A DNA stretch of 64,000 nucleotides from Candidatus Obscuribacterales bacterium (GCA_019637435.1 JAHBVO010000002.1:657519-721518); one strand, 5' to 3'. Numbered from the stretch's first letter, positions 13,146 to 43,116 are shown. Made by a program: numbers and translations. The notes: generated by a model from the sequence alone, not told the origin.

Positions 13146-14162
13146 TTAGCTGCCTTTGAGGAAATCGAAGCGAGGAAGATCCATCGATCTTGTATATTCG
13201 CTATCGTCTTCGAACTTCATGATCTGTCCGACTGTCCGGCGGATTCCGGCGCAGATATTGTCTAACGGAAGGTCATCTCCATCATATCCGAACGGATCTT
13301 CGATGTCTTCCGCGATTAATTCGATTCCCACCAGGAAATAGGTTGCCGTTAATACAAGCGGCAAGCACCACCACATCGAAAAACTCTGTGACATGTACCA
13401 GGGCATCGCGAGCAGATTGAGCGCGATCCCCTGTCGCATGAAGGCTCTGTACGAAATCGCAATCGGACTGTTTTTAATCCGTTCGCAGCCCCCGGCGATA
13501 TCCATGAACGCGAGTGCGTGACGGTCAAACTGAAGCATGAGCATGCCGTCGACCTGGCCATCTCGACGCCATTTTTGCATTAATTCGAATATTTTCCCGG
13601 CGATGTGAACAGGGATGTTCTGGGCATCTACATCTGATACCACTCCCACTCCCGGAAGTGGGCGACTCGGTTTCGTGCCGCGCAAATGATGTTTTAGCGC
13701 GTATGCGAAAGAGATCACGAGCTCTCCCAGGCGAGCTTTGTCAGTATTTCTGATACCGTCTATGGAGCGTACCTTCAAACAAATGTTGCGAGAATCATTG
13801 ACCAGTTGTCCCCAGAGCTTTCGACCTTCCCACCAGCGTTCATATGCCGAATTGGTGCGGAATACCAGCAGCAAACCAAGTATGATACCGCTGGAAGAAA
13901 CAGCGCTGAATTCTTTGAACATGTGCGCCGGGAAGGTTTCCTCGGCAAACCAGTCAACTGCAATTGTGTAAACAGCCATTATTGCTACCCACACCCAGAT
14001 TCGCTTCACGACCGGAATTTTGTGCATGAGAACGAACGGGCGAGTCCATGAACGAATCCCTTTGATAAAACCGGGAGGTTCAGGTTGGCTCGATGGTGCG
14101 GTTGTAAAAGACAGCTCGATGTCGTCGGCGTCATCGAAACTGGGTGAAGCTGTAGAGGACAC
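13146..14162 (-). CDS. Bestrophin-family (UPF0187/YneE-like) anion channel
   Basis: Family hallmark FRTNSAYERWWEGRKLWG, plus several TM segments. Confidence 0.8.
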   Translation of the reverse strand: MSSTASPSFDDADDIELSFTTAPSSQPEPPGFIKGIRSWTRPFVLMHKIPVVKRIWVWVAIMAVYTIAVDWFAEETFPAHMFKEFSAVSSSGIILGLLLVFRTNSAYERWWEGRKLWGQLVNDSRNICLKVRSIDGIRNTDKARLGELVISFAYALKHHLRGTKPSRPLPGVGVVSDVDAQNIPVHIAGKIFELMQKWRRDGQVDGMLMLQFDRHALAFMDIAGGCERIKNSPIAISYRAFMRQGIALNLLAMPWYMSQSFSMWWCLPLVLTATYFLVGIELIAEDIEDPFGYDGDDLPLDNICAGIRRTVGQIMKFEDDSEYTRSMDLPRFDFLKGS

Positions 14163-14367
14163 AGTTGACTTCCTTGTGCTTGACTCCGTCTGATTATTCC
14201 TTATCAGGGAGTTCTTGCCAAGCAGCGAGGCTCTGATACGTCAATCTTCGCAACAGGAGGACCGGAGTTACTCGCTGAAACCTTGACTGGTTCAGCGATT
14301 GCGTGAATGTTAGATTGGATTCTATGAACTTCAGGTGAACAATTTCATCCGGCTGATTAGCGCGGGT

Positions 14368-18254: not shown

Positions 18255-20071
18255 GACGTCGCATCCTCTGAACTAGTCGGAATGCGAATCCAGAATGTGC
18301 TGCCTTTGCCGACCTCGCTATCCACACCGACTTCACCGCCATGGGCCTCTGCGATTGCTTTGACGATTGCAAGACCAAGCCCGGTACTCTTCATTGATGA
18401 CTGTTTTGCCGTTGCCGATTGTCTGAATTTTTCGAAAATCAAGTTCGCATCTTCTTGAGGAATGCCTGGTCCCTCATCGACTATTCGCAATTCAACGTGG
18501 TTTGCACTTCTCACTATTGCAAGTGTGACGGTGCCATTTTTAGGCGAAAATTTAATCGCGTTGGATAATAGATTTATCACCGCTTGAACTAGACGCAGTT
18601 CATCACCAAATATGGTGGCGTCTTCAGCGGGACCGACGACTTTCACGTATGCACTGTTGGCCATTGCTTCTAGTGCCTCCTTTGCGGAAACGCAGACCGC
18701 AGAAGCTCGTAAAGGCGCTCTGTTGAGGACGAGCTTTCCGGCTTCCAGTTTGTCGAGTTCCAGCAGGTCGTTCACAAGCTCTGTTAAACGTACAATGCTT
18801 GTTTCAGTTCGCTCTAAAATCTTGAGGACGCCTTCAGAGAGCTTCCCTCGTTCGCCCCGTATCAGTAGACCTATACTATTGCTGGTGGCAGTCACAGGAG
18901 TACGCAAGTCGTGGCTGACCATCGAAAGAAACTGCTGTTTCAATTTCTCCAGCGCTCGACGTTCCGTCACGTCATGTGCTACGCAAAAGTAAGTCTTCTG
19001 GCTTTGTGACCAGTTTACCGACCACGAGAAATTTCTGAAGCCACCATCTTTACACCGGATGACATTTTCCAATTCCCCCTGAGGAGAAGGTAGAGTGGAT
19101 ATTCGCACGAAATCGGCGAGCGAATTTGCCTGCTCGCTCTTGGGTACCAACGCCATAAGTGGACTGCCGAGCAATTCCTCTTGAGTGTAGCTCCATAAAC
19201 GATTCACTGTTGCACTGACACCTGTAAATCGAAGCTTTTCGTCAAAAGAGCAGATTACATCCGCTGCGTTCTCTAAAATTGCCAGTTCCCGATGCCTTGC
19301 TTCGCCGAGGATTTCGTTGGTCTCGTGTACGACTCGGTCTAACCTGGCAATCTCGTCATTGCCATTTTGTACCGGCGCGAGCGGTTTGTATGCAGAAACC
19401 AGATGAAGGTTTCTTTCGATCCTTTGCAAACGTCCGAGGATATCCCGCACGAGAAGCATCGCTAAAATGGTTTGTATGACTGTAACAGCAAGAAGTCCTG
19501 AGAGGATTATGGTCTGGGTCGTGTGCCGAAAATTAGCGAGTTGCGCTGGCTCTTCATTCAACAGGCGTGATTCGATTCGAACAATCTTTTGAGATAGTTC
19601 GTGCATGTTCAAGATAACACCAGCCAGTGTTTTCGTAGAAAAGCGTTTCTGTCTTTCATTCGCATCGATCTTCTGATCCGTGATCGTTTTCTCGATGTCG
19701 TCAAGGTATTGCACCATCGCTCTTCGAATTGACTGGGAGTCATCGACAATTTCACTGAGTTCCGGATCTAATCTTTCCAGATCGCGCCACTGAGCGCCTA
19801 CTATGAAATACCTCTTCAGGTTTCTCAACTGAGGAATGATGATGTCGGGGCTGGGATTTGCAGGATTTGTTATGACCAGGATGCCGCGCGCGACGTCGGA
19901 TTCGAATTCGTGCAGTTTCAGTAAAACAGCTTTGCTTGCCTGAAGGTCTGCTTGTTGCCGCTGTTTGTCGGAAATGACTTGCGAGAGACCAATAAAGAAG
20001 ACTATCTCAAAAAAAACTGGTACCACAACTAGTATCAGCAGTTTTTGAGTGACAGTAAGACTCGCAAACAA
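18251..20071 (-). CDS. Membrane sensor histidine kinase, paralogous architecture to 16368-18254
   Basis: H-box MVSHDLRTPVTAT and HATPase motifs (LSNAIKFS, DEGPGIP, STGLGLAIVK). Its stop overlaps the downstream kinase start by 4 nt. Confidence 0.85.
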   Translation of the reverse strand: MFASLTVTQKLLILVVVPVFFEIVFFIGLSQVISDKQRQQADLQASKAVLLKLHEFESDVARGILVITNPANPSPDIIIPQLRNLKRYFIVGAQWRDLERLDPELSEIVDDSQSIRRAMVQYLDDIEKTITDQKIDANERQKRFSTKTLAGVILNMHELSQKIVRIESRLLNEEPAQLANFRHTTQTIILSGLLAVTVIQTILAMLLVRDILGRLQRIERNLHLVSAYKPLAPVQNGNDEIARLDRVVHETNEILGEARHRELAILENAADVICSFDEKLRFTGVSATVNRLWSYTQEELLGSPLMALVPKSEQANSLADFVRISTLPSPQGELENVIRCKDGGFRNFSWSVNWSQSQKTYFCVAHDVTERRALEKLKQQFLSMVSHDLRTPVTATSNSIGLLIRGERGKLSEGVLKILERTETSIVRLTELVNDLLELDKLEAGKLVLNRAPLRASAVCVSAKEALEAMANSAYVKVVGPAEDATIFGDELRLVQAVINLLSNAIKFSPKNGTVTLAIVRSANHVELRIVDEGPGIPQEDANLIFEKFRQSATAKQSSMKSTGLGLAIVKAIAEAHGGEVGVDSEVGKGSTFWIRIPTSSEDATS

Positions 20072-25405: not shown

Positions 25406-26872
25406 ATGGGCGATTCTGTGGGCATCGTGTGGTTCCGATTCGATCTGAGATTGTCGGATAATCTGGCGTTGCACGAAGCCGTTTCAACTTGCGATTTCGT
25501 CGTGCCGCTTTATATCTGGAGCGAGACTGAATCTGAAAACGCCCACTGGGCGCCGGGTGCTGCGACTAAGTGGTGGCTACATCAATCGTTGAAAGCGCTG
25601 GGTGAACAACTGGTGAACGTCGATTCGGAACTTGTTATTAGAGAGGGCAACTCCTTAAAAGTTCTGCAGGATTTGATCAAAGAGACAGGCGCAGACAAGG
25701 TCTTCTGGAATCGCAGATTCGATCCGGCAGGACGCAAAGTTGATGAGCAGCTGCAAAAGAAATTAGAAGAAAATGGTATCTCGGTACACGCATTTAACTC
25801 TAATTTGCTTCACGATCCGGACCGTGTCCTCACGAAAAGCGGCACCCCCTTTAAAGTTTTCACACCATTCTGGAAGAATTTCACGGAAAATATTGAGCCT
25901 GAAGTTCCAAAGGGAAAAAATAAGAGGATTCCGTTTCCGAAGAAAAAATTGAAGTCGATCAAGTTGGACGAGCTTGCCTTGGAGCCGAAGATTGACTGGG
26001 CATCTGGCTTCCGGGATTACTTTGAACCCGGAGAAATAGGTGCGCACAAACGATTGAAAGAATTTTTGAAAGATGGCATCAACCATTACGCTACGGGGAG
26101 GAATCTTCCGAACGAGGATGGTGTCTCCATGCTTTCTCCGTATCTGCATTTTGGAGAAATCAGTCCACGTCAAATTTGGCACGAAGTTCTTGGTACCGAC
26201 ATCAAACCGGATCATCGAAAAGATGCTCAGACCTATCTGAAAGAAATAGGGTGGCGGGAATTCGCTCACCACGTGCTTTATCATTTCCCACATACCTGCG
26301 ACAAACCATTACGAACTCAATTCGCGAAATTTCCCTGGGCACACAGTAAGAAAAATCTGGAGCTCTGGCAAAAAGGGAAAACCGGCTACCCCATAGTTGA
26401 TGCCGGCATGCGTCAGCTCTGGCACACCGGTTGGATGCACAATCGCGTTCGCATGATAGTTGCCTCCTTTCTCACCAAGGATCTATTAATCAGCTGGAAG
26501 GACGGAGCCGAATGGTTTTGGGACACACTAGTTGACGCAGATCTTGCAAATAACACGTTAGGGTGGCAGTGGGCCGGCGGGTGTGGGGCGGATGCTGCAC
26601 CTTACTTTCGAATTTTCAATCCGGAGTTGCAAGGCGAAAAATTTGATCCGCATGGCGAATATGTTCGACAATGGGTTCCTGAACTGAAGCGACTCGAATC
26701 TAAGTTTATCCACAACCCTTCCAAGGCACCGCCACTGGTGCTCCATGCCGCTGGTATCGAACTCGGCGAGACGTATCCAAAGCCGATGATTGACCACTCC
26801 GCCGCGAGGAAGCGTGCGCTCGAGGCGCTCGCCTCTATAAAAGGAGCCGGGGATGACGGTGATGATTATTGA
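25406..26872 (+). CDS. phrB: Deoxyribodipyrimidine photolyase (class I CPD photolyase/cryptochrome family)
   Basis: N-terminal IVWFRFDLRLSDNLAL. FAD-binding region WREFAHH, TGYPIVDAGMRQLWHTGWMHNRVRMIVASFLTKDL and GWQWAGGCGADAAPYFRIFNP. Confidence 0.92.
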   Translation: MGDSVGIVWFRFDLRLSDNLALHEAVSTCDFVVPLYIWSETESENAHWAPGAATKWWLHQSLKALGEQLVNVDSELVIREGNSLKVLQDLIKETGADKVFWNRRFDPAGRKVDEQLQKKLEENGISVHAFNSNLLHDPDRVLTKSGTPFKVFTPFWKNFTENIEPEVPKGKNKRIPFPKKKLKSIKLDELALEPKIDWASGFRDYFEPGEIGAHKRLKEFLKDGINHYATGRNLPNEDGVSMLSPYLHFGEISPRQIWHEVLGTDIKPDHRKDAQTYLKEIGWREFAHHVLYHFPHTCDKPLRTQFAKFPWAHSKKNLELWQKGKTGYPIVDAGMRQLWHTGWMHNRVRMIVASFLTKDLLISWKDGAEWFWDTLVDADLANNTLGWQWAGGCGADAAPYFRIFNPELQGEKFDPHGEYVRQWVPELKRLESKFIHNPSKAPPLVLHAAGIELGETYPKPMIDHSAARKRALEALASIKGAGDDGDDY

Positions 26873-27356: not shown

Positions 27357-28523
27357 TCAGGCAGAAAGTTTTTTCTGAATCCTGGTTCTCTTCCGTTTGA
27401 AAGTTAGCAGTGAGTTCTCGTCATCTAAGTGGGGAAGCAGGATTGAGAGACGCATCTCGTCCCTCGTCAGGCCTGCAGTTCGTATGGCTTTGCCTTCGAC
27501 AGCCCGAATCAATTTCGGAAGGCTCCCGCGTTCCGCATGTGCGAGGATAGCAGAGTGAATGTAGCTCTGCCGACAGACAGCCATTGTGTTTCCTAGCGCA
27601 GTGGCTGCGGCTCTGACGGCCTCGACGATTGCTCGTTTTCTTGCCGTTTTACTCAACTCTTCTTCCATTCTGGCCAATTCCGCAAGCGCGATCACGCTTC
27701 CTCGCCATGTCCTGAAATCTTTTGCCGTAATGTGCTCATTTGAAATCTCGAGTAAATATGCGTTTACGTCAGCGGAGTTTACGGCCACAAGTTCATTCTC
27801 TTCGTTATGGTACGAGAACAGGAATTCCGACTCGTTGCTTTCGCAATCAGCAATTACTGCTGCCAATCCACTATCGCGACATTCAAGCTCAATTTGTTTT
27901 CCTGATTTGCCTTTGAAGTTCAAACTAATTCTGTCCATCGAGCACTCCACGTGCTCTGTCAACAAAGTCGTCGCACCATGCGATTCGTTTTCCTGGACAT
28001 AACGTTTGTTTCCTATTCTGATCGAAGCTTTGTCCAACAGTCGAACAACGGCGGCGATTACTCTGCGTTTAGATAATTCCGGTGTTTTTAAATCCTTACG
28101 CACTTGATTCCGAATCTTGGTCAGCAAGCCCGCAAATATTTGCAGGCGACCATATTTGTAAGCAGCGCTCGCTTCGTGCCAGCGCGCGTGATAAATGTAC
28201 TGCTTCCGCCCGGCGTCATCGTAGCCGGTCGCTTGAATGTGACCATCCGGGTTTAAACAGATCCAAACGTCCTTCCACGCCGGCGGTATCACCAACGCCT
28301 TGACTCGACTCTTCGTAATTTTGCACGTGACAGTTGAGCCGTCCGAAGCAATATATTTGAAACCTTTCCCGCTTTTCTTTCTGGTGAGGCCTTGACCAAA
28401 TTCCTGGATATACTCGAGTCCGGCGCTTGCTGCCCGTTCCATCCAGGCAAGTTGTTTCTCTGTGATCGTATTATGAGTTGCCATTGTTTTCTTGCCTTCT
28501 ACTTCGTGTCCGGTATGTAGCAC
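27357..28523 (-). CDS. Type IB DNA topoisomerase (poxvirus/eukaryote-like bacterial TopIB)
   Basis: N-terminal KGFKYIASDGS..WKDVWIC, RKQYIYHARW, DFRTWRGS and the C-terminal catalytic-tyrosine context VCRQSYIH. The start could be the Met at 28484. Confidence 0.8.
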   Translation of the reverse strand: MLHTGHEVEGKKTMATHNTITEKQLAWMERAASAGLEYIQEFGQGLTRKKSGKGFKYIASDGSTVTCKITKSRVKALVIPPAWKDVWICLNPDGHIQATGYDDAGRKQYIYHARWHEASAAYKYGRLQIFAGLLTKIRNQVRKDLKTPELSKRRVIAAVVRLLDKASIRIGNKRYVQENESHGATTLLTEHVECSMDRISLNFKGKSGKQIELECRDSGLAAVIADCESNESEFLFSYHNEENELVAVNSADVNAYLLEISNEHITAKDFRTWRGSVIALAELARMEEELSKTARKRAIVEAVRAAATALGNTMAVCRQSYIHSAILAHAERGSLPKLIRAVEGKAIRTAGLTRDEMRLSILLPHLDDENSLLTFKRKRTRIQKKLSA

Positions 28524-28833
28524 GCATATGCGATCTTGGACCTGCTTTCGCGAAGGAAAGCCTAGTCCAATTTTTGGAGCGGTTGCGGCTTTGCGTTCAC
28601 TTAGCGTTCGTTTGCCGTCACTATTGCACCATGGACGGTGGCATGCCCCAAGTTGAGCGCTAACTTGCGATGATTTTGTGATCGCAAATTGCTTGCGATG
28701 GGACTCTTCCTAGAAATCATTTCTAATCAGTACTCAGTATATGTATCTATTGGTATATTATTTTTACTCGACTCTGCTCGGACAAACTGTTTTCTCTCCG
28801 CCCATTTGCGCTATTTCTCTCTTCCGCGCCTCA

Positions 28834-29313
28834 ATGAAAAAAGTTCTTTATTTGGAAGACAGTCTTCTGGACTCGACCCTGGTCGAGACTGCTTTGCGGG
28901 CAAAGCTACCGGAGATTCAGCTGAAAATTGTCTCGAACATAGAGACATTTAGAAGCGCTCTGGAGACCGAAAAGTTCTTCGCGGTTCTTTGTGACAACAC
29001 CACTGTAGACGAGGATGAGCTCACCTCGGTAAAGCTAGCGAAGAAAACTCAGCCCGCGGTTCCAGTAATCGTTGTTTCCGGTCACAACGATGAACTTCGT
29101 GCGGCTGGAGCGATCAATGAAGGAGCCTTTGCCTACCTCAACAAGAGCGAGTTGTGGCGTTTGACCTTCATACTTTCAAGGCTGTCGGCGGGTCGTCCAC
29201 TGAGTACAAATAATTTGCCTCCGCCGCCGGGCATTGTCACGGCATTCGCGGAGACGGAGTTTGCTGGTAATGATCTGGGTGATGAAGAATCGCCTGCAAG
29301 TTGCGATTACTGA
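28834..29313 (+). CDS. Single-domain response regulator (receiver) with a short C-terminal tail
   Basis: KKVLYLEDS, FAVLCDNT (acceptor Asp), PVIVVSGHND and AFAYLNKS (Lys) make an intact CheY-like signature. Confidence 0.75.
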   Translation: MKKVLYLEDSLLDSTLVETALRAKLPEIQLKIVSNIETFRSALETEKFFAVLCDNTTVDEDELTSVKLAKKTQPAVPVIVVSGHNDELRAAGAINEGAFAYLNKSELWRLTFILSRLSAGRPLSTNNLPPPPGIVTAFAETEFAGNDLGDEESPASCDY

Positions 29314-32041: not shown

Positions 32042-32938
32042 CTAGTGGGTTAATGCGTGTTTCAACGCCGCTTCAAGCTCCGGATATCTGAATTTGTAGC
32101 CTGATTCCTCGAGCTTTGTAGGTTTAACGAGTGTGCTGGAGAGAAGCAGTTCATCAGCCATCTCGCCCAGTAAGAGCCGCAACCCAAAGGCTGGGACTGG
32201 GAAAACTGTCGGGCGATGTACAACACTACCCAGCGTATTCGTAAATTCTTTATTGGTCACCGCATGTGGTGCTACAAGGTTGACCGGACCGGATAAACTT
32301 TCTGTGTTCAAGATGTGAATAATGGCTCCGACCTCGTCGTCCATGGAGATCCAGCTCATGTATTGTCGTCCATCACCGAGCGGTCCGCCCAGCCCCGACA
32401 TGATAGGTGGAAGCATCTTTGCTAACGCACCTCCTCTCTTTGATAGCACAACTCCGGTTCGAAGATTTACTACTCGGATTCCTGCTTTCTTCGCCGCTTC
32501 CGTAGCATTTTCCCAGTCCTTGCATACCTCGGAGAGAAAGTCGAAACCGCCACTCGCCGATTCGTCGACAATAGTGTCACCACGCTCACCGTAAAAACCG
32601 ATTGCAGAGCCGCAGATAAAAACTTTGGGCGGATTTTTCAACGCGGCGAGCGCCTTGGAAAGTTGGTTGGTGGAGCGAACGCGACTCTCGCGTATTTCTT
32701 TCTTCTTCTCATCCGTCCATCTTCCCGACGATATATTTTCTCCTGCGAGATGAATGACGGCGTCGACCCCTTCCAGACAAACAAGATTTTCGCCCTCACC
32801 GTTCTGGTCCCAGAATATCTCACTGGGTGATTCGCTCGCCTTCCGAACTAGATGAATGACTTGATGTCCATCATTGGTGAGTCTGGTTGCGAGCTCGGAA
32901 CCTATTAGCCCGTGCGAGCCGCTGATTGCTATCTTCAT
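32042..32938 (-). CDS. TIGR01777/YfcH-like NAD-dependent epimerase family protein (with DUF1731-type C-terminus)
   Basis: From the internal Met: MKIAISGSHGLIGSELA (GxxGxxG). The length of about 299 aa matches this family. The upstream ORF extension to 33055 is probably not translated. Confidence 0.8.
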   Translation of the reverse strand: MKIAISGSHGLIGSELATRLTNDGHQVIHLVRKASESPSEIFWDQNGEGENLVCLEGVDAVIHLAGENISSGRWTDEKKKEIRESRVRSTNQLSKALAALKNPPKVFICGSAIGFYGERGDTIVDESASGGFDFLSEVCKDWENATEAAKKAGIRVVNLRTGVVLSKRGGALAKMLPPIMSGLGGPLGDGRQYMSWISMDDEVGAIIHILNTESLSGPVNLVAPHAVTNKEFTNTLGSVVHRPTVFPVPAFGLRLLLGEMADELLLSSTLVKPTKLEESGYKFRYPELEAALKHALTH

Positions 32939-33140
32939 GCTCTCGTCCTCTCTACCCATCTGTCTGAGCCTCTCGTCCACCAGCCGAGACTCGACTTCTT
33001 CTCTTATTAGACCGGGTTGAGGTGAACGTTGGGTGAGCGGAGGGGGTAAATTCAAGCTCGTCTCGACTTCCGTACCAGGTGGCCCGACCGCCCCGTCCGG
33101 ACCTGCGTGTTCACCGCCTGTTCACGCAGCGGGAATATAA

Positions 33141-34331
33141 TTGGAGAAAGACTCTAACCGCCCGAGGGCGGCGCCTGAAAACCACGTGGGAATTCTCATG
33201 AAGCCGGATACCGACAATCATATTAAGACAAGCCCGTTCGGTACTCTGAAGGCCTCCGAGCACCATCTCCGAGTACTTGAGAACGCGGTGCAGTCAGCGC
33301 GCAACGGCATAGTAATAACGGATCCCTTACTACCGGACAATCCAATCATCTTCTCCAACATTGCATTCAGCGAATTGACCGGATACGAGTTGAGCGAAAT
33401 CATTGGAAAGAATTGCCGCTTCTTACAGGGGATGGACAGCGATCAGGCTGAGCTCGATGTTCTCCGCTCTGCGATTAAAGAAGAGAAACCGTGCATCGTG
33501 ACGCTGCGAAACTATAAGAAGGATGGCACACTCTTCTGGAATGAATTGAGCGTAGCTCCAGTGATGAACGAAGATGGGATTTGTGTCAACTTCATAGGCG
33601 TCCAGAACGATATAACTGCAAGAAAAGAGGCTGAACGACAAGTATCCGAGTTTCATTCCATGGTCTCCCATGAGTTACGCACGCCACTCACGTCTATCAA
33701 AGCTTCACTGGGTCTGGTTGAGGACGGTGACGCCGGACACATCCCCGCACCAGCGAAGCGACTTATACAGATAGCAACGCAAAACGCCCAGCGCCTTTTG
33801 AAACTTGTCGACGACATTCTGGACCTGAAAAGAATGGAGTCTGGAAAGCTTCAATTGAACTTCACCATCGTCAATCCGGACGAACTTGTGGAGGATGCAG
33901 TGAATTCGCTTAACGAACTAGCGAAGGCGAATGGTGTTTCCTTTGAAAAGGAAATTGCTACAACTCGTGCTTTCTGCGCGGATCCGGAGCGTGTCACGCA
34001 AGTGCTCTTCAATCTAATCGGAAATGCGATTAAGTTTTCCCCGTCGAATGGGAAAATAACTATCAGAGTTGAAGATGAGGGCAAACAAATCCGATTCTCA
34101 GTAAAGGACGAAGGACCGGGCATCGCTCAGGATCAACAAGGCAAGCTGTTTCACAAGTTTTCACAGGTTGACTCCTCCGATACGCGACCGCAGCCTGGAA
34201 GTGGTTTGGGTCTTTCAATTTCCAAAAAGATTTTGGATTTGCATGGGGGCGAGATAGGCGTAGTTAGTAGGCACGGTGAGGGTGCGCTCTTCTGGTTCGC
34301 ACTGCCAGTAGTGCCAAAGGTGAATGGTTAA
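33141..34331 (+). CDS. LOV-domain (blue-light, FMN-binding) sensor histidine kinase
   Basis: Canonical LOV core NGIVITDPLLPDNPIIFSNIAFSELTGYELSEIIGKNCRFLQG...NYKKDGTLFWNEL...GVQNDIT, with the photoactive Cys codon at 33414-33416. H-box MVSHELRTPLTSI plus an HATPase domain. The start codon is uncertain (33141 TTG or the Met at 33198). Confidence 0.9.
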   Translation: MEKDSNRPRAAPENHVGILMKPDTDNHIKTSPFGTLKASEHHLRVLENAVQSARNGIVITDPLLPDNPIIFSNIAFSELTGYELSEIIGKNCRFLQGMDSDQAELDVLRSAIKEEKPCIVTLRNYKKDGTLFWNELSVAPVMNEDGICVNFIGVQNDITARKEAERQVSEFHSMVSHELRTPLTSIKASLGLVEDGDAGHIPAPAKRLIQIATQNAQRLLKLVDDILDLKRMESGKLQLNFTIVNPDELVEDAVNSLNELAKANGVSFEKEIATTRAFCADPERVTQVLFNLIGNAIKFSPSNGKITIRVEDEGKQIRFSVKDEGPGIAQDQQGKLFHKFSQVDSSDTRPQPGSGLGLSISKKILDLHGGEIGVVSRHGEGALFWFALPVVPKVNG

Positions 34332-35037
34332 GGTTATGGCAAAAATTCTAGTAGCTGAGGATGACCGAGACCTGGCAGAAGTGGTGAGCTTCGCTCTGCA
34401 ATCTAAGGGGCACATGGTGCAGGTCGTTCATGACGGCAAACAGTGCAGCGATTATCTCAGCACCTGCGAGTACGACCTAATAATACTAGATTGGATGATG
34501 CCCTGGAAATCTGGTTTGGAGATATGCCAGTGGTTTAGAGCTAAAGGCGGCCGCACTCCAATTTTGATGCTGACCGCCAAGACTAAGATGGACGACCGCG
34601 AACTTGGTCTCGACAATGGTGCCGACGATTATTTGACCAAGCCATTCGATCAACGCGAACTTGCTGCGCGTGTGCGGGCCTTACTACGCCGCCCGGATGT
34701 GGTTGTGGGAAATGTTCTGAAAGCTCATGATATTCAACTTGATACAGTTTCTTGCATTGTCACCAGGGGCGGTGCCGAAATTCATTTGCGACCGAAAGAG
34801 TTCAGTCTGCTCGAATTCTTCATGCGACATCCTAATCAAACCTTTTCCACTGATGCATTACTCCGGCGTGTTTGGCTTGATGACTCAGCCGCTACGCCCG
34901 ACAATCTGAAGACGCATATCAAGATGTTGCGTCAGAAACTCGATACCAATCGAGCGGAATCGATGATAAAGACCATCCGCCGGCGCGGATATGTGATGAC
35001 GACTCAGGATGGGATGTCGGAGTTCGCCGACGAGTGA
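34324..35037 (+). CDS. OmpR/PhoB-family DNA-binding response regulator
   Basis: KILVAEDDRDLAE, DLIILDWMMP, ILMLTAK and DDYLTKPF form the receiver, followed by a winged-helix output (LRPKEFSLLEFF, IRRRGY). It overlaps the kinase stop. The start is 34324 or 34336. Confidence 0.9.
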   Translation: MVKVMAKILVAEDDRDLAEVVSFALQSKGHMVQVVHDGKQCSDYLSTCEYDLIILDWMMPWKSGLEICQWFRAKGGRTPILMLTAKTKMDDRELGLDNGADDYLTKPFDQRELAARVRALLRRPDVVVGNVLKAHDIQLDTVSCIVTRGGAEIHLRPKEFSLLEFFMRHPNQTFSTDALLRRVWLDDSAATPDNLKTHIKMLRQKLDTNRAESMIKTIRRRGYVMTTQDGMSEFADE

Positions 35038-35282
35038 ACTATCGTTGTCTCGCTGACTGGGAATAAACGCCTCGCAACATCTCGTAAAGATTTCTGTAAT
35101 GAGCCGGACTGGTTTTTCTCACGCCTTTCCGTCGCTGCGGCGTTTCGAGCAACCTTCGTTTGAGCTGGCTTGAAAGGCCATCTTTAATATTGCTAACGAT
35201 TGGGAGAAGTCAAGTCTTGGGTGTTACTATCCTTAAACGCCCGAGTGGCGCAGCATAGACACGTCTTCTCCAGGAGTTTCCA

Positions 35283-38200
35283 ATGCCGAAGTGGAACAAA
35301 CCCCTTGCGCTTGGCGCAGCGCTTATCTCTTTCCTGCAACCATCTGCGGCATGGGCTGACGGTCGCGGTCAAAATCGTGGACAAGACTGGCAGGCAGCGC
35401 ATTTCCTGGAGCTTCACGGGATGTCGCGCGCTGAGCGACATTTGATGCGAGCGGAACAGCGTGATGCTCGCATTGAGGCTCGCATGGATCGTGTTCCTCG
35501 ATCGTCAGTCGATGCCAGCACCATGGTGCGCAACTTGAGCCGACCTGTACAACCGGCTTTTAGTCTAGGCATGCTGCCGAATAATCTCAACTTGAAGTCG
35601 ATGAAGAACACCATCAACTTGAAAAAGTTTGGTTTGTTGGAACCGGTAACCATCACTGCCGGCGGCAAGCAAATCGTTATAGACGGTTCCTCAAGACTGA
35701 CAGCGGCTGAGGCTGTTGCGGTCCGGCAAATATTAACCACTGGAACGCAAACCATCGAGCTTTCCGCAAAAGGTGAAGCCGTCGGCGGCTCGATGGTGCT
35801 CAACCAAGATTCCGGTCAGCAACTCGGTCGTTTGATTATTCCGACTGGTGTCACTGTCATCGATAACGGCACCACAGGCGAGATTTCTGTGCGTGGCAAC
35901 ATCATCAACCAGGGTTCGTTGTATGCACTTTCGAGTAGCGACGGAAACTCTACGACGATCACCGCGCGCAACATCATCAACAGCAAAGGCGGTCTAGTTA
36001 CCGGCGCAGTGCCGACGACGCCCAGCGTCGACTTTGGCGATCTCACGCATGGCGTGGACCTTACGCTCATCGCGCAGAATGGCATCTATAACTCTGGTGA
36101 TATCACAGGTGGTGCTGGAAATTCGAACGTTCACCTGACCACCAACAATCTTCAGAACAATGGTTCAATTTCGTCCATCGACGGTTCGCTGAACATTGAC
36201 GCGCTCAACAGCCGCGGTAACGTGCGAATCAATAACGTCGGCGGAACGATGTCCGCCACCGCTGGCGATATCAACATTGGAAGCAACAACCTCGCGTTCA
36301 CCAGAGAGATAAACATTCTTGGAGGCGATTACAACTCCAAGAACTTGAATTTGAACGGTGGTAATGGCGTTATCAACGGCGTCTTGGGTAATGTCAGCGG
36401 CAAAATGAATACGTCGGCGCGTATCGCGCACGTCGGAACCAATACGGAAACGCTGGTGCTCGGTAACACTTGTATCACAGGCGACCCGACCTTTTGGAAT
36501 ACTGGAAACATCGATATACAGGGCGATATTATTGTCAACGAAGCGCTATCGATATTAGCAACGGGCAATATTACTGACACATCCGGTGTTCAGCACATAA
36601 TTAGAGCAAGAGCCGACAACGGTTCCGGAAAAGAAATCAATATTATCGCTGGTGCGGACCTGACCTCATCGTCAGGAACCAAGAGCCCGATAATCGGACC
36701 TTTTCCAGGCACCGGTTCAGCGATACCGAATGGCGCCAAAGTGACCGTTAAGGGACCGTCTGCAGGGGGTGGCAACATAGATCTAGGGATCAGCATAATC
36801 GACGCTAGCGCGCAGAAACAGACCAATGGCAACGGTGGGAATGTCACACTCATTGCGTATTCGGATACGAACGGCGCTAACGGAAAAATAAAGATCTTAG
36901 GTTTTGACTCCAGTGTGCCCGGTGATGTGAAAACCAGCATCAATACAGGTGCTAGCGGTTTTGGAGTGGATGGGCACGTCATGATAATTGGCGGCGGCAC
37001 GGGTGCTGACGCGATTAACATTGGTTCGATAAACACCATTGGTGGTGGCGGTGGCGTCGGCAACGTGACGATTTCCAACTCCAATGCGGTTGGGACCGGA
37101 ATCGCGTCCAGTAACGGGACTCTCGCAGGAAACCTTGCTCCGGGGGCACTCCTTGGTGGAACTATAACAACCAATATTATTCAAACCGGTGGCGGTTTCC
37201 TCAAAATCGAAACTGGTGGAACAGCTGACCTTGGTAAAACGCTTGGTAGTACCAACGGTATCACTTCAACGATCTCCGCGTTCTATATAGGAACTGGCGG
37301 CGCGCTCACTGTTAATGCGGACAAAATAAATGTGCTGGGTGACGTCCGTGCCGATGGTGGGCCTGGAGTTCCTGGTCTCAGTGCGGGCGCCGGAGGAAAA
37401 GGCGGATCTGGAACTATTGCCGGGAATGGAGGCGCTCTAACCCTCGCATCCGGTGCCGGTGGTGTCACAGTATCTTCGGGTAAGTTTGTTCTCGCCATCG
37501 GTGGATCGGGTGGCGTAGGAACTGCGGGTGGAACAGCCAAACCCGGGAAGGGCGGATTGAGTGGCGGTGATGGTGGCGATGGTGGAAATGGCGGAAAAGT
37601 TACAATAACCTCTACCACTGGAGATATCGTCGTAAATTCCGGAGCGATAATTGCAGCGTCCGGTGGAGCCGGTGGCAATGGTGGTGCTGGCAGTGCTGGC
37701 TCTAGCGGAGCCAAGGGTGGCGCCGGAGGTTCAGGTGGCAACGGCGGAGCGGCCGGAGACGGCGGCACATTGCTGATTCAAACGGGATCCGGCAACATCA
37801 ATCTTGCGCTTGCCAGTCAGGTTTTAGCTGGTGGTGGCATCTCGCCGCTTAACCAGGGTGGAAATGGCGGTGCTGGTGGAGCCGGTGGAGCAGGTACCGC
37901 TGGAGCCGGCGGCAATGGCGGTGCCGGTGGTAACTCTGGAAATGGTGGAGCGGCAGGTAAGCTTACGATTACATCTTCTTCCGGGAACATAAGTCTTGGC
38001 GCGATTCAGAACAATGGCGGAGCCGCTGGAACTGCAGGCGCTGGCGGTGGTGGCGGTTCCGGTACAGGTGGTAATGGTGGCAAAGGCGGTGCCGGTGGCG
38101 CTGGTGGTAATGGTAGCGCCGGTGGTGTTCTGACAATTGACGCCAACGGGTCTGGAACTATTACGACCAACAATGCCATACAGAGTTTCGGCGGCAGCGG

Positions 38201-40577
38201 TGCCAGTGGTGGCGCAGGCGGTGCTGGCGGATCCGGAAGTGTTGCCGGTGGTTCTGGCGGCGCAGGTGGTGCTGGCGGTCAAGGTGGCAATGCCTCGATT
38301 GTCGATATGTCTACTGAGTCAGGAGCTATTCTCGTAAACAACGCATCCGGCGCGGCAAGCCTCGGTGGTAACGGTGGCAATGGTGGTGCGGGTGGTAATG
38401 CCGGCACGGGAGGCAGCGGTTCTGGTGGTAGTGGAGGCAACGGCGGCAACGCAGGAAGCGCTGGCAATGCCAACCTCGTAAAAGTGTCTTCAACCAGTGG
38501 TAATATTGGCATTACCGGCGATGGTACGAGCGCAGGCTTCATTGTTGGTGGTGGCTTGAGTGCTCAGGGCAGTGTCGCCGCTGGAAATGGTGGCGCAGGC
38601 GGTGCTGGTGCTAATGGTTTCAGCGGCGGTGCCGGCGGTTTCGGTGGTAATGGCGGCTCGGTCGGTAGTGCGGGAACGCTCCAGGTTACTTCAAACACTG
38701 GCAACATCGATTTCAGTCAAAAAATTGTCATCATTGCTGCAAGCGGAGATGCCGGAAGTGGAGGCAGTGGCGGCAAAGGCGGCGATGCCACCAACTCGGC
38801 TGGAGATGGCGGTAACGCAGGTAGTGGGGGTACTGGTGGTACCGGTGGCGTGGGTGGTACCATGAACATCAGCACCGGTGGATCGGTAACGACTGGTGAT
38901 AAGTTCACTGCGGATGGTTCCGCCGGCGGTGCCGGTGGTAACGGTGGTGTCGCAGGCAACGGCGGCAGCGCGTCCGGCGATGGCGGCTCCGGGGGCTCCG
39001 GTGGAAATGGTGGCGCCGCCAACAAAGGTGGCAGCATCACGATTTCGGCGCAGAACGTCAATATGAATAACTTCACTGCCAACGGATCAAGATCCGGCAA
39101 CGGTGGTAACGGTCAGAATGGTGGTACTGCAGGCTCCACCGGAAACGGTGGCAATGGTGGCAGTGGCGGAAACGGCGGAGCTGCAGCCGGCGGTGGTACT
39201 GTAAAAATTACATCCACTTCCAACACAAATGCGAACGGAATCACGGTATCCGTTAAAGGTACAACAGACGGAAGTCAAACCGGTGGTAACGGCGGAAACG
39301 CCGGAGCCGGAGCAGCAGCGGGTGCATCTGGAAGTAAAACCAGCGGTGGTAATGGCGGCAATGGTGGCAGTGCTGGCGGTGGTTCTACAGCTGTCGGCGG
39401 GAATATAATATTGACGACTACTGCGGGCACGATCACTGCAAACGCTCTTAGCGCCAACGGCAATCTTGCCGGACTCGCTCGGAACGGCGGCGTTGGTGGC
39501 AATGGTGGCACGACTTCCAGTAATGGTGATGGCGGAAACGGTGGAAGTGGCGGCACAACAGGAAAAGGCGGAGCGATTACTGTCGGGTCAACGACCGGCA
39601 CTATAAATGTTGTGGGTCTTTCTGCAGCGGGTCGAGCGGCCTCGGATGGAGGAAACGGAGGGAATGGTGGCAACACCGGGACCTCAGGCGGCGATGCCGG
39701 AAACGGGGGGGCTGGTGGCTCGTCCGGCGGCGGTGGAAGCATCACAGTAAGTACCACTACCGGAGCGATTACGGCCAATAATGCGAACGCTTCCGGTAAC
39801 GATAAAAATGGAAGTGGTGGAAATGGTGGCACTGGCGGTTCCTCTGGAAATGGAGCTGGCGGAGACGGCGGCGCTGGTGGGGCAACTGGTGGCACCGGTG
39901 GTGGTGGCTCTATCAGTATCACTTCGACATCCGGCGACATAACGGCCCTGGGCGCAGATGCGAGTGCCGGCGTGGCGACCGCTGGCACTGCCGGAAACGG
40001 TGGCACCGGCGGAGCCGGTACGACTTCAGGTGGAGGAGGCGGTGCAGCTGGCTCGACCGGTAATGGTGGCGCTGGTGGTTCCATCAAAATCACTACAGGT
40101 ACGTCCAACACGGTCACTCTGGATACCTTGAATGTATCAGGGGGAAGCATCTTCAGCCCGGGGGCGACTGGTGGCACCGGTGGAAGCGGACCAGGCAAAG
40201 GCGGAGGCTCGGGCGGTAAAGCTGGAAACGGTTCGTCGGGCGGATCCGGCGGAACCATCAATCTAACGGGGGCGGTAACCGGTCTGACTACAGTGACTGC
40301 TGACGGCGGCGATGCGCAAGCGGGCGGTGACGGCGGCGTCGGGGGCGCTGGCGGACCGAAAGGCGGCAAAGGCGGACCTGGAGCCACAGGCGGAAATGGC
40401 GGCAATGGCGGGACCGTCACGAGCAACGCTGCTCTGGGCGTAACTCCGACTGTCAGTGGTGGGACCGGCGGCGCTGCCGGTTCCGGCGGGACAGGTGGAA
40501 CCGGAACCAAACCCGGCAAAGCTGGAAAGCCCGGCAAAGCAGGCGTCGACGGCACCAATGGCTCCGTAACGCCATAG
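35283..40577 (+). CDS. Giant secreted glycine-rich modular repeat protein (putative beta-solenoid surface fibre or adhesin)
   Basis: 1764-aa ORF with aggag SD and signal peptide KPLALGAALISFLQPSAAWA. The N-terminal ~600 aa are N/T/G/I-rich and hemagglutinin-repeat-like (ITARNIINSKGG, LIAQNGIYNSGDITGG). About 19 modules follow, each a GGxGG-rich stretch plus a short strand such as GGSITISAQN or GGKVTITSTTGDI. The C-terminus is a short G-X-Y run. Confidence 0.85.
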   Translation: MPKWNKPLALGAALISFLQPSAAWADGRGQNRGQDWQAAHFLELHGMSRAERHLMRAEQRDARIEARMDRVPRSSVDASTMVRNLSRPVQPAFSLGMLPNNLNLKSMKNTINLKKFGLLEPVTITAGGKQIVIDGSSRLTAAEAVAVRQILTTGTQTIELSAKGEAVGGSMVLNQDSGQQLGRLIIPTGVTVIDNGTTGEISVRGNIINQGSLYALSSSDGNSTTITARNIINSKGGLVTGAVPTTPSVDFGDLTHGVDLTLIAQNGIYNSGDITGGAGNSNVHLTTNNLQNNGSISSIDGSLNIDALNSRGNVRINNVGGTMSATAGDINIGSNNLAFTREINILGGDYNSKNLNLNGGNGVINGVLGNVSGKMNTSARIAHVGTNTETLVLGNTCITGDPTFWNTGNIDIQGDIIVNEALSILATGNITDTSGVQHIIRARADNGSGKEINIIAGADLTSSSGTKSPIIGPFPGTGSAIPNGAKVTVKGPSAGGGNIDLGISIIDASAQKQTNGNGGNVTLIAYSDTNGANGKIKILGFDSSVPGDVKTSINTGASGFGVDGHVMIIGGGTGADAINIGSINTIGGGGGVGNVTISNSNAVGTGIASSNGTLAGNLAPGALLGGTITTNIIQTGGGFLKIETGGTADLGKTLGSTNGITSTISAFYIGTGGALTVNADKINVLGDVRADGGPGVPGLSAGAGGKGGSGTIAGNGGALTLASGAGGVTVSSGKFVLAIGGSGGVGTAGGTAKPGKGGLSGGDGGDGGNGGKVTITSTTGDIVVNSGAIIAASGGAGGNGGAGSAGSSGAKGGAGGSGGNGGAAGDGGTLLIQTGSGNINLALASQVLAGGGISPLNQGGNGGAGGAGGAGTAGAGGNGGAGGNSGNGGAAGKLTITSSSGNISLGAIQNNGGAAGTAGAGGGGGSGTGGNGGKGGAGGAGGNGSAGGVLTIDANGSGTITTNNAIQSFGGSGASGGAGGAGGSGSVAGGSGGAGGAGGQGGNASIVDMSTESGAILVNNASGAASLGGNGGNGGAGGNAGTGGSGSGGSGGNGGNAGSAGNANLVKVSSTSGNIGITGDGTSAGFIVGGGLSAQGSVAAGNGGAGGAGANGFSGGAGGFGGNGGSVGSAGTLQVTSNTGNIDFSQKIVIIAASGDAGSGGSGGKGGDATNSAGDGGNAGSGGTGGTGGVGGTMNISTGGSVTTGDKFTADGSAGGAGGNGGVAGNGGSASGDGGSGGSGGNGGAANKGGSITISAQNVNMNNFTANGSRSGNGGNGQNGGTAGSTGNGGNGGSGGNGGAAAGGGTVKITSTSNTNANGITVSVKGTTDGSQTGGNGGNAGAGAAAGASGSKTSGGNGGNGGSAGGGSTAVGGNIILTTTAGTITANALSANGNLAGLARNGGVGGNGGTTSSNGDGGNGGSGGTTGKGGAITVGSTTGTINVVGLSAAGRAASDGGNGGNGGNTGTSGGDAGNGGAGGSSGGGGSITVSTTTGAITANNANASGNDKNGSGGNGGTGGSSGNGAGGDGGAGGATGGTGGGGSISITSTSGDITALGADASAGVATAGTAGNGGTGGAGTTSGGGGGAAGSTGNGGAGGSIKITTGTSNTVTLDTLNVSGGSIFSPGATGGTGGSGPGKGGGSGGKAGNGSSGGSGGTINLTGAVTGLTTVTADGGDAQAGGDGGVGGAGGPKGGKGGPGATGGNGGNGGTVTSNAALGVTPTVSGGTGGAAGSGGTGGTGTKPGKAGKPGKAGVDGTNGSVTP

Positions 40578-40695
40578 AGCAGATTCTCTTCAATAATCCG
40601 GCACAAACGCTTTGATGTCTATTGAGGTTGCTGAGCTTTTTTGCCTGAGGACTTTTACAATCTAACAGACTGGGTGGGCACAGCGAGGAATCATT

Positions 40696-42840
40696 TTGAT
40701 TTGCAGATTGCACTCAAGCCGGGCGCGGGCGCTGTTGTCGATAGCAATCGTTTTGTCCGGACTCTTCCCATCTGTCTCGCTTGCAGAGAGCCGCTTCGAG
40801 AAGCAGGCACGGACGAATCAGCGAATGCTCGAGCGCGCATTGCTGAACGCCCCGAATGACGCCAACCTGCTAATGGCAAAAGTAAACTATTTAATAGCCC
40901 AGAAGAGTTATGATGCGGCCCTGTCAATTTGCGCCGAACAATTAAAAGTAGCTCCCGTTCAAGCTGTGCATGAACTCTCTGATTACGCTCTGCACTACTA
41001 CAGCTCCGTCCAAGCAGTCCCAACGAGAGGGAAGTGGTTGTGCCGCAAGGCCGAGATTGAATATGAGCTTGACCGCTTCGATGAAGCGCTAGAAGACTGC
41101 GAAGCGAGTCTAGCAACTTATTGCGAAGAACGGACGCGAGCGTACTTTCTTAAGAGCAGAATTCTATCTGCGATGGGCCGCCTGGGCGAATCCTGTAGTG
41201 CCTTTGACACCGGTGTTTATCTGGTTTCGGAGAGTTCAAGCCGCGATCGTTATCCGATTTCCCAGTACATGCGAGACACTGCACTTCAAATCGGCGTTCG
41301 CAAAGACCCGATAAAAGAAAGCGTTGACTCATACGTAGACAGTTATGCGGCAGAAAAATTCCAGCCGCGAATTGAACATGCCGATGATCTGCTGGAAATC
41401 ATTTATAAACTAGCTAATTTGAAGGCACCGGATTCGGTGGCTCAACTGAGGGGGGTCTTGAATTCAGAAGTATGCTACGAGACCCGTAAGAAAAATGCTG
41501 GTTATACTCTCTTTGCTCCGAGTGAAAGCTGGAGGAGCGGCTATTTTGTGAAAAATATTGGGACTTTTGCGAGAAACGAGCTAAATTTAAAACCAGACAT
41601 CTTGTATGCATGCGTATCTTCGGACAAGGTCAAGGCGAAGTTCGGTGAACCGTATCGTACAGATGGCATTGTCTTTCATTCTGATCCAACCTCGCTTCGA
41701 TACATCACACCGGAGTACGAGTTGATATTCAGCTTTAGTCATAGTGGAAGCAGGGCCCTAATGAACGTGCAAGTCCTCTGGAGCAGCGATGAGTATAAGA
41801 CTGCTGTCGCTGAGGCTAAGGTTAACCGTCAGACGCGGGAAGCAGCAGAAGGTATCGAGTCTGTTGCAATCGTTCAGAATGTTAGACAACTTATTGGAAT
41901 GGAGTTACCGACCAAGGAAGTCGTAGAGAAACTTTTTGGGCATAAACTCAACCCCTTCCGACTAACAGAACCCAGGAGTTGGTCCCTGGGTTATCAAAAT
42001 CCAAACTACAACGGCCCAGTTGATACCGACTATCAGCTCACTTTTGCGCCACTTGGCACGGTAGACACGGACGCCCAACTTCAAATTAGTCCAGGAACCC
42101 AGAATCACAAAATTAACAGAAAACAAGTCGAGTCAGTTTTCCCTTGCACCATCATAAGTACCGAGCCAAGCCCGAAACCAAGCAAGGCGCGGTTGACCAA
42201 AGCGAGCTACAAAGGTAAATTCGCTTCGCTGACTATGGAATTCGATAACAATCAACCGGGCTCGCCCGTGGGGCGAATTCTGTTGTGGTGGCAGGGCAAA
42301 AACGCGGCTCGAACACTTGAGGAATACGAGAAAGAACAATCGGTCAATACAATTCTTGTCGATGCCGATTGTGCGATTTCGCAACGCGACTTTGAGCGGG
42401 CTCGCTTCTTGTTGGACAGAGCGTTCAATCGGGCTGAGAATTCTGGTCAGAGAACGACAGCATTCGAGCAACTATCGAAGGTCAGAGCTGGTTACTTGAA
42501 ACTGTTCACTTATTTGAAGAAGCCGGGGGAAATAGCCTACCTGAAGAAGGTTTCTTGTGCGCAATTGCGAGGGGATTTACTAAACCCCGAGGAGCTTTCG
42601 CTGTATGACGGCGTATTCTTCCCAACAGACCGCCAGTTAAGGGGGCGATGGAGAGTGAACAAAAACTCATCTGGGAGTTCCTTGGAGTGCACAAAGCTTG
42701 GCATGTTCATGGCTCGGAATGCCGAAGATGAAACCGCGATGCGGAAACTTTATCCATACGGTACCGACGGCAGTTTCGACATTGAATGTCCTCCTGCGCA
42801 ACTGGTGGATTCCATGTACTTCGATTTGATGGCGAAATAG
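40696..42840 (+). CDS. Hypothetical secreted protein with N-terminal TPR-like helical repeats
   Basis: 714-aa ORF. Signal-like ALLSIAIVLSGLFPSVSLAES, then TPR-like helices (LLMAKVNYLIAQKSYDAALSICAEQL, AEIEYELDRFDEALEDCEASL). TTG start after gaggaa. Confidence 0.55.
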   Translation: MICRLHSSRARALLSIAIVLSGLFPSVSLAESRFEKQARTNQRMLERALLNAPNDANLLMAKVNYLIAQKSYDAALSICAEQLKVAPVQAVHELSDYALHYYSSVQAVPTRGKWLCRKAEIEYELDRFDEALEDCEASLATYCEERTRAYFLKSRILSAMGRLGESCSAFDTGVYLVSESSSRDRYPISQYMRDTALQIGVRKDPIKESVDSYVDSYAAEKFQPRIEHADDLLEIIYKLANLKAPDSVAQLRGVLNSEVCYETRKKNAGYTLFAPSESWRSGYFVKNIGTFARNELNLKPDILYACVSSDKVKAKFGEPYRTDGIVFHSDPTSLRYITPEYELIFSFSHSGSRALMNVQVLWSSDEYKTAVAEAKVNRQTREAAEGIESVAIVQNVRQLIGMELPTKEVVEKLFGHKLNPFRLTEPRSWSLGYQNPNYNGPVDTDYQLTFAPLGTVDTDAQLQISPGTQNHKINRKQVESVFPCTIISTEPSPKPSKARLTKASYKGKFASLTMEFDNNQPGSPVGRILLWWQGKNAARTLEEYEKEQSVNTILVDADCAISQRDFERARFLLDRAFNRAENSGQRTTAFEQLSKVRAGYLKLFTYLKKPGEIAYLKKVSCAQLRGDLLNPEELSLYDGVFFPTDRQLRGRWRVNKNSSGSSLECTKLGMFMARNAEDETAMRKLYPYGTDGSFDIECPPAQLVDSMYFDLMAK

Positions 42841-43116
42841 AGAGGAGGACGCCGGTTCAAAAGGTTGTCATGGTATTGCGTGAATCTGTTGAACCGAGCT
42901 GGCGAGCCGCAGAACGTAATCTGCCCCTGATTCAGTGTACCGGTATGAGCGATATGTCATACTGTGTCTTCCTAATCGAGGCAGCTTCGCTGTTAAGTCT
43001 CTGCGGGCTGTGGCGTCTTGACTGACCGCCTCGACGATTGGTGTTTGCCGATCATGGTGCACCACAGGTGGTGCAAGAAACCCGTCAGCATGCAGTTAAC
43101 TTCAAAGGAGAAGGTT

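Follow-up and report, generated by a model that had tools for sequence, protein, structure and literature searches.

The closest described counterparts of the system reported here are the blue-light LOV histidine kinases LovK of Caulobacter (with its regulator LovR), LOV-HK of Brucella and EL346 and EL368 of Erythrobacter, which pass a phosphoryl group to a response regulator. These kinases are of the HWE/HisKA_2 type; their signal goes to LovR, a single-domain regulator, or to PhyR of the general stress response, and most of the characterised bacterial LOV kinases feed this response through receiver-only or PhyR-type partners. Dimers of OmpR/PhoB-family regulators have as their hallmark a tandem direct repeat with an 11-bp period, and at PhoB-activated promoters such a box lies upstream of the -10 and replaces the -35 element. 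In cyanobacteria, the OmpR-type regulator RpaB acts at HLR1, a repeat of the GTTACA type whose spacing is other than the one found here. Signalling from LOV kinases through LovR and PhyR to the general stress response has been treated elsewhere (PMC12148442, PMC10359499). Here we analysed a stretch of 64,000 nucleotides from Candidatus Obscuribacterales bacterium (GCA_019637435.1 JAHBVO010000002.1:657519-721518), an uncultured member of the Melainabacteria, called the window throughout, with positions counted from its first letter. It encodes a LOV histidine kinase, an OmpR/PhoB-family response regulator and, behind them, a giant glycine-rich secreted protein. We place a probability of about 0.6 on the reading that kinase and regulator run an autoregulated blue-light photoprotection regulon and that the giant gene is a lineage-specific neighbour. 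The features on which this reading is built are the following:

33198-34331, plus strand: soluble LOV-HisKA-HATPase histidine kinase, 377 amino acids
About 33306-33620, plus strand: LOV core of the kinase, with the codon of the adduct cysteine, Cys73, at 33414-33416; the codon of the phospho-acceptor histidine, His158 (in SHELRTPL), follows at 33669-33671
34324-35037, plus strand: OmpR/PhoB-family response regulator, with receiver (acceptor Asp56) and winged-helix Trans_reg_C domain
33109-33125, plus strand: exact direct repeat GTTCACCGCCTGTTCAC, putative operator of the kinase-regulator operon
33136-33141, plus strand: TATAAT -10 hexamer, 10 nt 3' of the exact repeat and 57 nt 5' of the kinase ATG
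33022-33038, minus strand: second direct repeat GCTCACCCAACGTTCAC, with one mismatch, facing the divergent oxidoreductase gene
32042-32938, minus strand: TIGR01777 (YfcH/ThyD-like) NAD-dependent epimerase-fold oxidoreductase with DUF1731, divergent from the kinase

A sequence-only reading of the window had recognised the LOV histidine kinase by the motifs GKNCRFLQG, NYKKDGTLFWNEL and GVQNDIT, and all three are present in the translation of the open reading frame (ORF) 33141-34331. The ORFs it had proposed for the kinase, the regulator, the giant protein and a TPR-like protein were likewise all found in place. The kinase ORF as called mechanically opens at TTG 33141; ATG 33198 matches the starts of the relatives and is most likely the true start, giving a protein of the same length as theirs. 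The kinase matched PAS_9 (E 1e-19), HisKA (E 3.5e-16) and HATPase_c (E 2.5e-30) in Pfam, and its top match among solved structures was YF1, the engineered YtvA-LOV/FixL kinase (4GCZ, E 4e-51), with further matches to YtvA, Brucella LOV-HK, short LOV proteins of Pseudomonas and the LOV domains of aureochrome and phototropin. In an alignment of 32 kinase homologues (48-98% identity), the residues N72, C73, R74, F75, L76 and Q77, the flavin-contacting N105, N115 and Q136 and the H-box SHELRTPL were all invariant. The three flavin contacts, which were taken as the equivalents of YtvA N94, N104 and Q123, align with the YtvA segment of YF1. The protein combines a PAS fold carrying the adduct-cysteine motif and the conserved Asn/Asn/Gln contacts with a HisKA core (PF00512) holding the H-box histidine and a HATPase_c domain; judged by these residues it is a genuine LOV histidine kinase, and its LOV domain is predicted to bind flavin mononucleotide (FMN) and to undergo a blue-light photocycle.

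Like YF1 and its parent YtvA of Bacillus subtilis, to whose LOV cores its own is highly similar, the window kinase has GKNCRFLQG in this core, and it shares with YF1 a single N-terminal LOV domain joined by a helical linker to a dimerisation/phosphotransfer and ATPase module. It differs from YF1 in being a natural protein, in having an OmpR-type partner in place of FixJ and in a linker that, counted on the sequences, is about 16 residues shorter from DIT to the phospho-acceptor histidine, so that the signal polarity of YF1 cannot be transferred to it. Reading the polarity from an alignment with YF1 was tried and dropped; HMMER pairs the window H-box with a histidine of YF1 that does not belong to an H-box. 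The score against the YtvA_fam equivalog was under its cut-off (170 against 250). That the LOV-like domain is no photosensor but senses redox state, or is a PAS domain left as a vestige, in a system that answers to a non-light cue, we regard as very improbable. Such a role would suit the Melainabacteria, which are the non-photosynthetic sister group of Cyanobacteria and include many members of dark habitats (PMC3787301); it is opposed by the invariance of the adduct cysteine and the canonical flavin contacts, by the close alignment of the LOV segment with YtvA in YF1 and by a neighbourhood and candidate regulon that are rich in photolyase and photolyase-related genes.

From the LovK-type systems the locus departs in both partners, as the kinase core is of the HisKA type and a winged-helix DNA-binding domain forms part of the regulator. 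The pair has neither the HWE/HisKA_2 core nor the single-domain receiver or PhyR partner of the alphaproteobacterial LovK/LovR systems, and the kinase scored 137 against the BluLightHisKinLov equivalog, whose cut-off is 450. The regulator matched Response_reg (E 3e-27) and Trans_reg_C (E 4e-22) in Pfam. Its receiver has the acidic pocket, aspartate, threonine and lysine of a phosphorylation site (E12/D13, D56, T84 and K106) and its C-terminus the Trans_reg_C domain, as expected of the OmpR/PhoB family; the closest solved relatives are DrrD, MtrA and RegX3. The sequence-only reading had noted that the kinase and regulator genes overlap, and the start of the regulator ORF does overlap the kinase stop by 8 nt; translation may begin at the other possible start, ATG 34336, which would leave a gap of 4 nt and no overlap. 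An assignment of the regulator as an RpaB orthologue was rejected (149 bits against a cut-off of 330), and its score against the PhoB equivalog was also under the cut-off (202 against 296). The recognition helix is kept among 12 LOV-linked regulator orthologues and is different in the unrelated OmpR-type regulator of locus L094 (related loci are denoted by L-numbers).

The pairing of these two genes extends well beyond the window. The kinase had 7099 homologues at E <= 1e-20, and the named ones among the best 120 belong mostly to Candidatus Obscuribacterales or Melainabacteria. Kinase neighbourhoods were gathered from 17 related contigs, and 16 of them have a full-length OmpR-type regulator, 52-84% identical to that of the window, at most about 1.7 kb from the kinase; only L008, whose locus stops 1.4 kb past the kinase, shows no regulator beside it. 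The position and orientation of the regulator relative to the kinase differ among the 17 contigs. Every Obscuribacterales-type locus that holds a regulator has a full-length one of the OmpR type; in 73 LOV-kinase loci outside Obscuribacterales, the nearest regulators, where they match at all, match over the receiver domain only. Because of these receiver-only matches, the view of the sequence-only reading that a LOV kinase wired to a DNA-binding OmpR-type regulator is unusual holds good, and going by the gathered neighbourhoods this wiring is characteristic of the order Obscuribacterales as a whole. Full-text searches of the literature turned up no paper that names 'LOV histidine kinase' together with OmpR, no natural pair of a LOV kinase and OmpR, and no account of LOV kinases or of photolyase in either Melainabacteria or Obscuribacter.

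Alignment of the divergent region between oxidoreductase and kinase across the genus revealed the direct repeat GTTCAC-N5-GTTCAC, which is invariant there; the second copy, at 33022-33038, is invariant in L084-L087. The non-redundant Obscuribacterales-type loci (254 kb) hold 12 exact and 12 one-mismatch copies, and after shuffling the same set held 0.83 sites on average and never more than 3. The other LOV-kinase loci (1.28 Mb) hold no exact copy and two with one mismatch. In all Obscuribacterales-type loci but one the repeat adjoins the kinase, the regulator or the oxidoreductase, whatever the gene order, and most of the sites are intergenic and directly upstream of one of these three genes wherever they have moved; in L005, L006, L009 and L093 it sits between regulator and oxidoreductase. 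A TAnnnT hexamer follows exactly 10-11 nt downstream in 13 of 27 sites. The repeat is thus conserved, enriched and co-localised with the regulator gene, and on this distribution we infer that the regulator would bind it. By analogy, the arrangement recalls PhoR-PhoB in having an OmpR/PhoB regulator, a tandem repeat of 11-bp period that lies about 10 nt upstream of the -10 and would replace the -35, and a copy of the repeat before the regulator's own operon. It differs from that system in its hexamer, GTTCAC as against the CTGTCAT-type pho box, and in its input, which would be light and not phosphate.

The repeat could instead be the site of another regulator that co-controls the kinase locus and the photoprotection genes, for example a promoter element for a sigma factor encoded behind the kinase, with the LOV-linked regulator binding elsewhere. 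A sigma-70-family gene (regions 1.2, 2 and 3) does lie immediately behind the LOV kinase in L005 (7439-8437), L009 (11140-12117) and L093 (11224-12237), and some of the sites have no promoter geometry. In L005 and L009 another GTTCAC repeat stands just past the sigma-70-family gene, the L005 copy being the 17-mer found in the window at 33109. We nevertheless hold this explanation to be quite improbable, as a tandem repeat of 11-bp period is typical of OmpR/PhoB dimers and the two hexamers stand 10 and 21 nt from the -10, against the 16-18 nt expected of a -35 element. Moreover, the repeat is restricted to the clade possessing this regulator and tracks the regulator gene through rearrangements (L005, L006, L009 and L093).

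If the repeat is the operator of the LOV-linked regulator, the genes that it precedes indicate what the photoprotection regulon would contain. The neighbour most often kept beside the kinase is the oxidoreductase. Its mechanically called ORF extends to 33055 and its true start is probably ATG 32938; the protein scored 354 bits against TIGR01777, above the cut-off of 207, and 267 against the ThyD equivalog, below the cut-off of 400. ThyD of Anabaena, a TIGR01777 protein, is strongly induced by high light and is needed for high-light acclimation (PMC11711299). In L023 the repeat precedes the regulator gene, with a ferrochelatase gene behind the latter, and also a gene for a SOUL haem-binding protein and an apparent operon of oxidoreductase, photolyase and NmrA/DUF2867 genes. 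In L007 it precedes an amine oxidase and an AhpC peroxiredoxin, and in L090 a one-mismatch copy directly precedes a DPRP (photolyase-related) gene. Light- and singlet-oxygen-inducible regulons are known from other non-phototrophs, and the set of genes preceded by the repeat resembles, by analogy, such regulons. Since these genes are of this kind, the output of the system would be a photoprotection or photo-oxidative-stress regulon. In L001 and L084 the repeat also precedes a receiver-GAF-HisKA-HATPase kinase. The same receiver-GAF kinase is truncated to a receiver-only ORF (ATG 28834; about 75% identical over 148 amino acids) in the window and in L085 and L087, and in the window a weak repeat with two mismatches remains by this ORF at 28595-28611 (region 28595-29313).

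Three further features of the window belong in this context:

25406-26872, plus strand: cyclobutane pyrimidine dimer (CPD)-type DNA photolyase (Pfam)
14324-14340, minus strand: direct repeat with one mismatch, with a TAACAT hexamer 11 nt downstream, upstream of a bestrophin-family gene
13146-14162, minus strand: bestrophin-family channel gene

The photolyase gene had been reported by the sequence-only reading and was confirmed. The bestrophin gene is a possible further member of the regulon. As a separate observation, a bestrophin gene lies inside the LOV neighbourhood of L084. Parallels to the cyanobacterial high-light response are found in the conserved TIGR01777 neighbour related to ThyD (PMC11711299) and, for RpaB/HLR1, in an OmpR-type regulator at direct repeats upstream of light-stress genes. 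Unlike RpaB/HLR1, the system of the window has a regulator that is no RpaB orthologue, a LOV input kinase and a non-photosynthetic host (PMC3787301).

The domain identities, residue conservation, motif statistics and geometry described above suggest how such a switch would operate. FMN held in the LOV domain would form an adduct with Cys73 in blue light, and the short helical linker would carry the change on to the HisKA dimerisation helix (His158), altering the net kinase/phosphatase activity. Phosphoryl transfer would follow to Asp56 of the co-transcribed OmpR/PhoB-type regulator, which would settle as a head-to-tail dimer on the 11-bp-period GTTCAC-N5-GTTCAC in the -35 region, in the way that PhoB occupies pho boxes. 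Its targets in the window would be the kinase-regulator operon itself (autoregulation), the divergent ThyD-like oxidoreductase and, as a possible third, the bestrophin gene. In the relatives they would include the photolyase operon, the SOUL haem-binding protein, the amine oxidase with the peroxiredoxin and the photolyase-related gene.

The region behind the regulator holds the giant gene, for which the following features are relevant:

35038-35282, plus strand: intergenic region between the regulator and giant genes, 245 nt
35283-40577, plus strand: secreted giant protein, 1764 amino acids
40696-42840, plus strand: ORF of 714 amino acids with a hydrophobic N-terminus and weak TPR matches

The giant protein is, as the sequence-only reading had described it, a secreted glycine-rich repeat protein encoded on the same strand 245 nt past the regulator. 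Glycine makes up 29% of its residues overall and 37% beyond residue 650, and its N-terminus carries a Sec-type signal (AWA/D). An N-terminal beta-solenoid region of about 600 amino acids is followed by about 19 modules of about 45-110 residues (commonly 55-70), each consisting of a GGxGG-rich tract and a short 'xITITSTSGNI' strand, such as KVTITSTTGDI. Tandem Repeats Finder returned only two short 18-bp arrays in the gene, so the modules are old and diverged and are neither recent duplications nor an assembly artefact. AlphaFold, run on residues 1-800 with a shallow alignment, predicted a confident all-beta solenoid at about residues 200-430, with low confidence elsewhere, and a single-sequence run on the Gly-rich repeats gave no usable model (predicted local distance difference test, pLDDT, 37). 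Foldseek returned no significant match of the giant-protein model in the PDB (best E 0.5); its non-significant list is dominated by beta-helical secreted proteins, namely HxuA, Ag43, HMW1, RsaA and an antifreeze protein.

Neither Pfam nor NCBIfam matched the giant protein, and seven homologues searched against the same databases gave nothing except a single Fil_haemagg repeat match in one distant homologue. A word-indexed search with the N-terminus found four homologues. When residues 1-700 were searched exhaustively with HMMER, the family grew to 1032 cluster representatives, of which 286 had E <= 1e-30, and the top matches were mostly proteins of about 1000-3700 amino acids. All named representatives of the family are listed as 'hypothetical protein [Candidatus Obscuribacterales]'. 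We read the protein as a secreted beta-solenoid fibre or adhesin-like member of an Obscuribacterales-specific family. It is like the FHA/TpsA, autotransporter and PE_PGRS giants in being secreted, in its N-terminal all-beta solenoid and in a Gly-rich repetitive C-terminus that recalls PGRS tracts. Unlike them, it has no TPS, autotransporter, PE or other Pfam domain and reaches only Foldseek E > 0.5, and the N-terminal Haemagg_act domain and adjacent TpsB gene of two-partner secretion were not found for it. Compared with its counterpart in L085 (12086-17401), the giant protein is 81% identical, against 98% for the kinase; the differences lie mostly in the Gly-rich modules, the N-terminal 430 residues being nearly identical, and this divergence fits a fast-evolving exposed protein.

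Whether this gene belongs to the regulon can be judged from its distribution and from the region in front of it. A giant homologue stands behind the regulator only in the genus-level clade formed by the window, L085-L087 (kinase 98% identical), L084 (83%) and L001 (76%). It is absent beside the pair in ten more distant kinase-regulator loci, and five loci with giant homologues (L088, L089, L090, L094 and L095) have no LOV system, four of the five having no repeat either. Conservation in the spacer is found at 35074-35089 (GCAACATCTCGTAAAG) and 35178-35196 (CCATCTTTAATATTGCTAA), and its full list of blocks reads GCAACATSTCGTAA, CCATCTTTAATATTGCTAA and GGGTGTTACTATCC. In the last block we recognise an extended -10, TGTTACTAT, at 35222-35230, about 55 nt before the giant-gene ATG; L084 has TGCTAATAT in its place, with the pattern of TGn and TAnnAT kept, and AGGAG stands 7 nt ahead of the start codon. 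Because of this conserved extended -10, the giant gene very likely has its own promoter. No GTTCAC repeat with two or fewer mismatches occurs in 35000-35300, and a relaxed search with spacers of 4-6 gave nothing better than three mismatches. No Rfam family was matched in the window at gathering thresholds or when 32900-35400 was scanned permissively. The predicted fold of the spacer RNA is no more stable than those of shuffled sequences (z = 0.17), and the single terminator-like hairpin in the spacer is weak and not conserved. As no terminator was found, co-transcription of the giant gene with the pair, or read-through into it, is possible.

The sequence-only reading had proposed a light-to-surface circuit with the giant gene as the obvious target. 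Of this proposal the wiring of LOV kinase to OmpR-type regulator stands; the target does not, given adjacency in one genus only, a separate extended -10 and a spacer with no repeat. Direct control of the giant gene by kinase and regulator, perhaps together with the TPR-like gene, such that light changes the surface or adhesion, would accord with the shared strand and the 245-bp gap, with the lack of a recognisable terminator or structured RNA between regulator and giant gene, with an arrangement found in every member of the genus-level clade and with L090, where two giant paralogues lie behind the repeat-preceded photolyase-related gene. We consider it unlikely in view of the ten distant loci and the five LOV-less loci named above, of the spacer with its own conserved extended -10 and of the missing TPR-like gene in strains whose kinase is 98% identical. 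By sequence comparison, the giant gene is a genus-specific neighbour, probably not a direct target and probably a bystander of the photoprotection regulon.

The 'TPR-like' gene of the sequence-only reading exists as an ORF, and its label is less secure, resting on sub-threshold matches at residues 40-190; all TPR matches of the window protein are below the Pfam gathering thresholds. Its homologue in L084, 50% identical to it, just passes TPR_19 (26.4 against 25). Neither L085 nor L086 has the ORF; in both, the giant gene directly adjoins a DUF4412 gene, and in L001 the place that the ORF takes in the window (region 40578-43017) is filled by an ORF of 180 amino acids. The Pfam-annotated neighbours of the giant gene are DUF4412, DUF2911 and PIG-L genes, and no transporter-partner domain was seen among the annotated neighbours. 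Elsewhere in the window, a bacterial type IB topoisomerase (Top1B_N_bact and a eukaryotic-type Topoisom_I core) is encoded at 27357-28523 on the minus strand, with the same position in L001, L084, L085 and L087, and two adjacent large ORFs (628 and 606 amino acids) at 16368-20071, also on the minus strand, match histidine-kinase cores in tblastn.

Several observations weigh against an autoregulated photoprotection regulon with the giant gene as bystander. About half of the repeat sites have no well-placed -10, L092, the one locus in which the repeat was not found beside the three genes with at most one mismatch, has a copy with two mismatches, and a factor other than the regulator could bind the repeat. 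The promoter model does not account for an exact copy, GTTCACCAGTTGTTCAC, that lies antisense inside the photolyase ORF (25602-25618, minus strand), within codons 66-71 (GEQLVN), with no -10-like hexamer behind it. Both of its hexamers are exact in L001 (where the residues read GEHLVN), L085 and L087, and the residues under it are not conserved in the photolyases of L023 and L093; this copy may act as a roadblock, serve repression or be due to chance. Going by its sequence alone, the system could respond to light in either direction. On the side of the giant gene, the region behind the regulator has no convincing terminator or stable RNA structure, and in L090 (6271-18302) the two tandem giant paralogues (1670 and 1662 amino acids) lie on the same strand, 164 bp past the repeat-preceded DPRP gene, an arrangement which suggests that light genes and the giant family may be linked more than once.

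In its widest form, which we put forward tentatively and at somewhat less than even odds, our proposal is that the Obscuribacterales possess an order-wide natural LOV-HisKA/OmpR blue-light switch, whose pho-box-like operator drives a photoprotection regulon of ThyD-like and photolyase genes and which, in this genus and in the L090 lineage, may reach giant surface proteins by read-through. For natural LOV kinases, coupling to a DNA-binding regulator of the classical type whose operator can be predicted is a wiring that is not known to have been characterised. If the operator holds, the circuit would consist of one kinase, one regulator and a 17-bp site and might serve as a blue-light expression switch. 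Should the order-wide proposal be right, nature would have supplied a two-component module ready for optogenetic use, and the control of ThyD-type genes by light stress would not depend on photosynthesis. The ThyD-like oxidoreductase would be part of a light regulon in organisms that do not photosynthesise. These non-photosynthetic relatives of the Cyanobacteria appear to sense light and to defend themselves against it.

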